A stretch of DNA of 13,333 nucleotides from a virus. Lineage: Duplodnaviria; Heunggongvirae; Uroviricota; Caudoviricetes. Below, one piece after another: positions 3,425 to 4,365 of the stretch. Positions within the stretch are counted from its first letter, which is position 1. Each line of letters begins with the position of its first letter. Under the pieces are notes generated by a model, which had not been told where the DNA came from, searched no databases, and was given only the letters and a program-made list of their open reading frames with translations. The position numbers were made by a program, and so were the translations under genes. The stretch lies in IMG/VR virus record IMGVR_UViG_2909309443_000008; one strand, given 5' to 3'.

Positions 3425-4365
3425 TTAATACTCTCCCCCATTTGCGCATCAGTTAATTCTTTATGCCAGATACGCAGATTACGGATATGACCAAAAAGAT
3501 GATACTCCCCATTAGTGCCCTGCCCTCCAATTCGCAATACTGCCCGTGGAACAATTGAAGTCCATGTTGTTTTTGCCGCAACAGATAATTCACCATTACA
3601 TACGGCCTGAACATCTCCATCAGCGCCACAACGGAAGCCTGAAATGATTTTCCTCTGGGTTGTTGCCACATATTTATTACACCCTCCCATAGAAATAAAA
3701 GGAGAACCGGCATCAGAGAAATTATTACCACGGAATCCATGCGTGAACAGACCATTTTCCTGATAATCTTTAACATTAAAGATTAATGGTGATTTGCTGG
3801 GAGGGATATCCCAGTTTTTATTAACTTCAACAAGAGCACTGAATGGTAATCGGTGAATATTGTTTCTTACAGGTATTGTCACCATGTCGCTGGAGCGAGT
3901 GCCAGGAGCCCCTTCAGTAATGATAAATGACGTCCTGTACGACCCAATCTCCGCCTGAGGCATCGCAATATCTAACGTAGAGCCATTGGGGATAATACTG
4001 ATTCCAGGCATCGCCAGGATTTCAAATCTTGAGCTGATTATCATTTCCGCATCTGCAAAAAGAGTGGCGGTAAACAACCACCATTCACCGACTCTTTCTG
4101 CCGTCACCGTCACATTATTTCCATGAACAACATTTCCCGTAACAGGATCCAGAACTGCATCTGAATGAAAAACAAACGCACCATTATCAGACATTTTTCC
4201 GAACCTTGCACGACACCGGGAATTATCACTTTTCGTCAGACACGATATCGTCGTATAAGAACCTGCCGGGCAGGTGTAAGCATCATTCGTGTTTACAGCA
4301 ATTGCCTGATATCCTTGTGCTGTCGGATTTTCATTAATAACAGTTATAGTCGCTGCCCATCGCAT
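3421..4365 (-). CDS. 3' portion of a phage tail fibre / receptor-binding-like gene with a LamG/concanavalin-like C-terminal motif, left as an ORF by a deletion
   Basis: 314-aa ORF ending ...GTNGEYHLFGHIRNLRIWHKELTDAQMGESIK. Its first ~6 codons (MRWAAT, from ATG 4365) are terminase-A-derived DNA read in another frame and there is no RBS, so the native gene sequence begins near 4345. Confidence 0.55.
   Translation of the reverse strand: MRWAATITVINENPTAQGYQAIAVNTNDAYTCPAGSYTTISCLTKSDNSRCRARFGKMSDNGAFVFHSDAVLDPVTGNVVHGNNVTVTAERVGEWWLFTATLFADAEMIISSRFEILAMPGISIIPNGSTLDIAMPQAEIGSYRTSFIITEGAPGTRSSDMVTIPVRNNIHRLPFSALVEVNKNWDIPPSKSPLIFNVKDYQENGLFTHGFRGNNFSDAGSPFISMGGCNKYVATTQRKIISGFRCGADGDVQAVCNGELSVAAKTTWTSIVPRAVLRIGGQGTNGEYHLFGHIRNLRIWHKELTDAQMGESIK

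Follow-up and report, generated by a model that had tools for sequence, protein, structure and literature searches.

A junction between terminase gene A and the interior of stf in a DLP12-family prophage remnant of Escherichia coli, very probably a deletion scar

Genes and features of the window

The stretch of DNA analysed here (13,333 nucleotides, further referred to as the window) carries a short remnant of a lambdoid prophage of the DLP12 family from E. coli, situated at the argU/appY-ompT locus. A 2.2-kb probe taken from the window was found in 33 genomes and matched with 100% identity in at least 25 complete E. coli chromosomes, e.g. that of strain 99-3165 (NZ_CP029981); several strains among the 100% matches are labelled O6:H16. 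The gene order was derived from the annotation of NZ_CP029981, a 100% match over this probe, from the list of open reading frames (ORFs) and from a tRNA scan. The features are given below in descending coordinates.

Highest-coordinate gene of the window, beyond argU: fimZ, truncated by IS5
12061-12137: argU, tRNA-Arg(TCT), from the tRNA scan
10882-12045: intD, adjoining argU
Below intD, in descending coordinates: rusA, ylcG, quuD
8095-9177, plus strand: nmpC/ompC-type porin gene, intact, 360 aa
Below the porin gene, in descending coordinates: essD, rrrD, rzpD
Between rzpD and cosN: iss/bor, ylcI
5247-5258, minus strand: cosN, 12 nt (GGGCGGCGACCT), upstream of nohD
4524-5069, minus strand: nohD, Nu1-type small terminase subunit, intact, directly upstream of A'
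4347-4549, minus strand: A', the 5' remnant of the large-subunit terminase gene A, codons 1-68, GTG start at 4549
4346/4347: deletion junction, base 4347 (A) common to both parents
3421-4365, minus strand: chimeric 314-aa ORF, six A codons and 308 Stf codons
3421-4346, minus strand: the 3' 40% of stf (lambdoid side-tail-fibre gene), in its native frame
3424-3143, minus strand: 93-aa ORF, downstream of the stf remnant
3133-2429, minus strand: gene of a 234-aa tail-fibre protein with a Peptidase_S74 chaperone domain
2418-2125, minus strand: 97-aa ORF, downstream of the 234-aa gene
Between the 97-aa ORF and appY: tfa fragment
1449-709: appY, between the tfa fragment and IS1
1-713: IS1, at the lowest-coordinate end of the window

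The integration site is that of the DLP12 family, with argU and the adjacent intD on one side and appY-ompT on the far side, on which NZ_CP029981 and K-12 agree. The distal tail-fibre module (2125-3424, minus strand) is kept, its 93-, 234- and 97-aa ORFs being ordered as in complete relatives.

Several further observations concern the window outside the junction. The porin gene (8095-9177) is intact in the window, whereas IS5 interrupts it in K-12 and ISVsa5 in AR_0085. The IS1 copy (1-713) directly adjoins the 3' end of appY, and relatives lacking IS1 are homologous to the window only as far as 714. AppY has 246 aa in the window versus 249 aa in FG92-1, K-12 and others, and the last appY codons seem to have been replaced by sequence from the end of IS1. 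At the opposite end, fimZ (approximately 12381-13333) is truncated, with its C-terminus recorded as missing in the annotation of NZ_CP029981, and homology of the window to FG92-1 stops at 13024, the start of the IS5 copy. A 47-nt stretch (12059-12105) overlapping the 3' end of argU has an identical (100%) copy in strain 1428, located between envY and ompT (positions 2279-2325 of locus sequence L010), and the same stretch is found at the matching position of FG92-1 with 98% identity over 50 nt. This repeat presumably is a copy of the att core that marked the original far end of the prophage; if so, appY and ompT would fall inside the element.

Remnant of terminase gene A

A first-pass annotation of the window, made from the sequence alone, had described the minus strand as following lambda gene A up to ...GSDY, at about codon 68, and then changing abruptly. 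Both the course of the sequence and the codon are borne out. The A' frame (ORF 4549-4334) contains 68 residues identical to the N-terminus of lambda-type gpA and ending in ...AIMNAMGSDY, followed by NCY, whose codons are read from stf DNA, and a stop codon (4336-4334). All 68 residues coincide with those of A from phage PhiR42_1 and of K-12 aaaD. At the DNA level, identity to the terminase region of PhiR42_1 (100% over 954 nt) ends exactly at 4347, and so does that to FG92-1 (100% over 1,274 nt). The closest E. coli A alleles, which are 99.8-100% identical over the 1,274-nt left flank, all stop at this position as well; the last A-derived base is 4347 or 4348.

Membership in gene A is indicated by the identity to A and by the placement after, and overlapping, nohD and downstream of cos, with the identical DNA spanning both nohD and cos. 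Of a full-length A (about 641 aa, with ATPase and endonuclease domains) only 68 of 641 codons are left. The 71-aa A' ORF is too short for profile recognition and gave no match in a Pfam/NCBIfam search. It was annotated by PGAP as a partial pseudogene in NZ_CP029981, and A' is indeed a pseudogene fragment.

Side-tail-fibre part and the chimeric ORF

Between 4346 and 3400 the window shares every base (100% identity) with the 3' end of complete stf genes, which are 2,346-2,349 nt long (781-782 aa) and annotated as "prophage tail fiber N-terminal domain-containing protein". The Stf residues kept are 474-781 in the numbering of FG92-1 and 475-782 in that of CFSAN061771 (308 of 781 codons). The partner of A, suspected from the outset to be the interior of a tail gene, can thus be named as stf, entered at codon 474/475 of 781/782.

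The ORF reading into stf opens, as had been proposed, at an ATG (4365-4363) that lies inside A-derived DNA in a frame other than that of A. The earlier estimate of about six initial codons made of terminase DNA proved exact: codons 1-6 (MRWAAT) come from A, read in a frame not its own, and codon 7 (ATA, 4347-4345) is Ile474/475 of Stf. The product is represented in RefSeq by WP_023486745.1, "phage head spike fiber domain-containing protein". Matches to phage side-tail-fibre proteins cover residues 7-313 of the ORF and none of the first six.

In the 782-aa relative, the tail-attachment domain PF08400 occupies residues 3-132 (E-value 1.9e-66), and it was not found in the 314-aa ORF by the profile search. 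The domain NF048003 covers residues 435-626 of full-length Stf; the 314-aa ORF matches profile positions 43-181 of 182, and hence the break lies inside this domain and not at a natural boundary. The part kept is the distal C-terminal part of Stf, of a type shared with lateral fibres of T5-like and other siphophages at approximately 40-44% identity, and the N-terminal PF08400 anchor is gone. The first-pass annotation had itself raised the possibility that the 314-aa ORF is full-length in relatives; given the missing anchor and the entry into NF048003 at position 43, it is not.

The junction

An ungapped three-way comparison maps the breakpoint to the nucleotide, at 4347/4346, inside the interval 4334-4365 (from the stop codon of A' to the start of the chimeric ORF) to which the junction had originally been assigned. 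Up to the breakpoint A reads ...GGCAGCGACTA and continues with CATCCG; stf reads ...GGAAGGA and continues with TAACTG; the window reads ...GGCAGCGACTATAACTG, and its junction sequence is ...GACTATAACTG.... Base 4347 occupies position two of codon 68 in A and position one of the stf codon that is numbered 474 in FG92-1 and 475 in CFSAN061771. The search for microhomology that the first-pass annotation had suggested yielded this single nucleotide (A), and there are no filler bases.

No IS element is present at the junction either in the window or in the annotation of NZ_CP029981. With FG92-1 taken as the parent, no direct or inverted repeats of at least 8 nt were found within 60 nt of either breakpoint; one inverted 7-mer occurs in these regions, which is about the chance expectation. 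A chance resemblance is ruled out by flanks that are 100% identical over approximately 950 nt to either side. Microhomology of a few nucleotides at most, with neither an IS nor a site-specific motif, is what illegitimate deletions leave behind; the 1-nt overlap without IS, filler or repeats of at least 8 nt is the signature of an illegitimate event and not of a homologous, site-specific or IS-mediated one.

A longer, 3-nt microhomology (ATA) was considered as well, as some E. coli A alleles carry TAT at codon 68 (junction-probe matches over query positions 1-83). This variant is probably wrong, since all alleles with 99.8-100% identity on the left flank stop at 4347.

An assembly artefact, i.e. 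a chimeric contig, can be set aside with near certainty: the identical junction is present in 31 independently sequenced complete genomes, which refutes it.

DNA lost relative to complete prophages

CFSAN061771 carries a complete prophage at argU/appY-ompT-envY, comprising intD, early genes, Q, the lysis genes, nohD, A, the head and tail genes, J, lom and stf, the latter followed by the same three small ORFs as in the window. Compared to this prophage, 20,203 bp are missing in the window, with 100% identity on the stf side and 98.5% identity on the A side. Strain 1428 is complete from ybcL to stf, without lom; its flanking blocks are 96-98% identical to the window, it has the same nohD, ylcI, iss and lysis proteins, and relative to it the window misses 19,545 bp. 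The net loss versus complete prophages at the same locus thus amounts to 19.5-20.2 kb and includes the 3' 90% of A, the genes W, B, C, D, E, FI, FII, Z, U, V, G, T, H, M, L, K, I and J, lom where present, and the 5' 60% of stf. With the head and tail genes lost, the prophage is no longer able to package DNA or build particles. Two further candidates for complete prophages with flanks above 99.9%, QML220614 and TUM17668, were rejected, both being truncated by IS1.

The lambdoid tail-fibre regions are highly mosaic: a 346-aa variant replaces the 234-aa gene in strain 1428, and K-12 has tfaD/ybcY. Hence the joint might also be mosaic in origin, a foreign 3' module of stf having been imported beside an already truncated A by recombination between phages or prophages. 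However, FG92-1 and CFSAN061771 carry an identical stf allele (100%), followed by the same genes as in the window, at this very locus, downstream of A and oriented like it, and the joint offers no homology for homologous exchange. Further, A and stf have the same orientation in the same-locus prophages, and in the nearest relatives the two flanks co-occur in cis, are collinear and are 99.97-100% identical. We consider such an import extremely improbable.

The A'/stf joint is almost certainly a deletion scar in a DLP12-family prophage, produced by illegitimate, essentially homology-independent joining, with the chimeric ORF most likely as a by-product. None of the observations speaks against a deletion. 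In the proposed course of events, the second base of A codon 68 would have been joined illegitimately to the first base of stf codon 474/475, by RecA-independent end-joining, by a topoisomerase-type event or by replication slippage without useful homology. The net result would have been the loss of the rest of A, of the head and tail genes and of the 5' 60% of stf, and an ATG in the A-derived DNA would, by an accident of frame, have opened the 314-aa ORF reading into the stf frame.

One deletion or two

The first-pass annotation had ascribed the loss of the portal, capsid and tail genes to a single deletion. In complete relatives these genes do lie between the two breakpoints; that they were removed in a single event is not demonstrable, given the structure of FG92-1. 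FG92-1 is the closest relative on both flanks (one mismatch per 6,045 nt and one per 3,634 nt, 99.97%) and has 3,683 bp between the two breakpoints of the window. It lacks 15.8 kb owing to its own A::J fusion, in which about 553 codons of A are joined in frame to the approximately 250 C-terminal residues of J. The resulting 802-aa ORF (positions 21072-23480 of locus sequence L007), named "terminase gpA endonuclease subunit" in RefSeq, is followed by full-length stf. The shaft region of this stf (L007 24070-24507), a part missing from the window, contains internal repeats with a 189-bp offset and approximately 84% identity; they are situated upstream of the breakpoint and have no part in the junction.

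Two histories are compatible with this structure. The scar may have arisen in two steps: a fusion of A to J as in FG92-1 would have come first, and a nested deletion of 3,683 bp, from codon 68 of A to codon 474 of stf, would then have removed its joint. Among the relatives, FG92-1 comes closest on both flanks by a wide margin; it shares with NZ_CP029981 identical protein accessions for nohD, ylcI, iss, rzpD, rrrD, essD, the porin, quuD and rusA, and the other deletion of the window (10387-10390) is likewise nested over an FG92-1 junction. On the other hand, the A::J junction was found in one of 5,426 complete genomes, so it is not a widespread ancestral state, and as a widespread ancestral intermediate it was rejected. 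Moreover, the one-step and two-step histories need equal numbers of events, and strain 1428 combines a complete nohD-to-stf stretch with the same nohD, ylcI, iss and lysis proteins. We regard the two-step origin as possible and rather unlikely; the deletions in FG92-1 and in the window were probably independent, both starting from a more complete ancestor, with that in the window being one step of approximately 20 kb.

The second deletion junction of the window, at 10387-10390, corresponds to 2,050 bp of the early region that are missing relative to FG92-1 (L007 13180-15229). This deletion runs from a DUF4222 gene to a ybcO fragment and shows 4-nt microhomology (TGGA). It is younger than the A::stf scar, since AR_0085 has the scar and lacks this deletion.

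Distribution of the junction and other truncations at the locus

The A::stf junction, searched with a 161-nt probe, is present with 100% identity in 31 of 5,426 complete E. coli genomes and was not found in phage records. From the strain names, most of the 31 carriers appear to be O6:H16 or enterotoxigenic. One carrier, AR_0085, combines this junction with an ISVsa5 copy that interrupts the porin gene and with a frameshifted 234-aa fibre gene; the scar is therefore older than these changes. The frameshift suggests that the fibre module beside the scar is breaking down, in keeping with decay and not with selection.

Further truncations at this locus arose independently of the one in the window. 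In K-12, A homology ends in codon 103 (L006 7662) at an in-frame joint to tfa, followed by ybcY and tfaX. K-12 TfaD (b0561, L006 7535-8098) begins with MNAMGSDYIREV...NTLI, i.e. A residues 61-103, fused in frame to tail-fibre-assembly sequence; judged from its sequence, the K-12 reference tfaD, like the window ORF, is a chimera made by a deletion. A breakpoint common to K-12 aaaD and the window was rejected: BLAST alignments stop at 4347 because the window changes there, and the A sequence of K-12 continues to codon 103. K-12 and the window thus carry different alleles.

In TUM17668 and QML220614 (L008 21072-22699; L009 26928-28555) IS1 is located at A codon ~292, and a deletion extends through appY-ompT-envY-nfrAB to the rhs/T6SS region. 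In F11, essD' is joined to the interior of stf at approximately codon 155 (L012 4042-4047). Four of the five left breakpoints fall in the first 1.7 kb of A, in a sample conditioned on the nohD-A' query.

Possible function of the chimeric ORF

No Shine-Dalgarno-like sequence was found upstream of the ATG at 4365-4363, and a promoter and terminator scan around the ORF gave nothing above shuffled expectation near the junction. The 31 carriers are near-identical, and hence conservation among them is uninformative as to whether the chimeric ORF is under selection.

The 314-aa ORF could in principle be a domesticated, expressed gene, the receptor-binding part of Stf being retained either to serve the host or to supply modules to incoming phages. 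The ORF is undisrupted in every carrier and belongs to the Q-dependent late transcription unit, downstream of nohD; moreover, lambda can acquire stf/tfa and cos-region DNA from defective prophages by recombination (PMC3945230). Against domestication stand the lack of a ribosome-binding site at the ATG and of a promoter-like site nearby, the loss of the N-terminal attachment domain with a break inside a domain, and the frameshift of the neighbouring 234-aa gene in AR_0085. Domestication is therefore very unlikely, and on the features of its sequence the ORF would most likely be an untranslated or non-functional by-product.

The scar might also be non-neutral at the level of the remnant, kept as a donor of packaging and host-range modules to superinfecting lambdoid phages or as a cos-bearing, helper-mobilisable element, with the 314-aa product perhaps made. 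The cos-nohD region and the 5' end of A have repeatedly been kept, in four independent alleles (A codons 68, 103, ~292 and ~553), and the window allele also keeps the receptor-binding end of Stf and the downstream fibre genes in the late transcription unit. The genes that survive in the remnant commonly persist in DLP12. Homology of prophage remnants to lambdoid phages supports recombination with infecting phages (De Paepe et al. 2014, PMC3945230). This homology, however, is a property of the whole prophage remnant and not of the A::stf junction. We assign only a slight probability to a non-neutral scar.

Comparison with known systems

A literature search yielded general work on DLP12 and no description of the A::stf allele. 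The consequences of the junction are threefold. First, WP_023486745.1 is a deletion-generated chimera and not a natural gene, its first six residues coming from out-of-frame terminase DNA; the interest of the junction lies mainly in such matters of annotation and bookkeeping. Second, one E. coli group can be recognised cleanly by the junction, a marker resistant to homoplasy. Third, it adds one dated step to the known decay of DLP12.

The DLP12 prophage of K-12, with aaaD (b4634) and tfaD (b0561), resembles the window in having argU, nohD upstream and appY-ompT downstream, as well as a truncated A fused to DNA of the tail-fibre region and an ORF that starts in A-derived DNA. It differs in the joint, which in K-12 connects codon 103 in frame to tfa, whereas in the window codon 68 is connected out of frame to stf codon 474. 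Moreover, the window keeps the 3' part of stf and three further ORFs, and its positions 2106-4346 have no counterpart in K-12.

The complete argU prophages (CFSAN061771, 1428) share with the window the locus and the gene order; the nohD-A region is 98.5-99.9% identical, and the 3' end of stf is 100% identical in CFSAN061771. In contrast to the window, they still have the head and tail genes (19.5-20.2 kb), and CFSAN061771 also keeps the early region. Compared to gpA and Stf of lambda, A' shows a 68-residue identity to lambda-type A, and the full-length relatives of the chimeric ORF have the PF08400 domain typical of lambdoid Stf, whereas in the window A has shrunk to 68 of its 641 codons and Stf to 308 of its 781.

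Decay of defective, or "grounded", prophages by deletion has been described (Bobay et al. 2014; Ramisetty & Sudhakari 2019; both as cited in PMC11389934). The A::stf scar is one more allele of the well-known stepwise decay of DLP12, that is, ordinary prophage decay with no new biology. As in other grounded prophages, the structural genes are lost, while int, Q, the lysis cassette, bor/iss, the porin gene, rusA and cos-nu1 are kept in the window. The remnant keeps its homology to lambdoid phages and differs from such prophages in nothing of principle.
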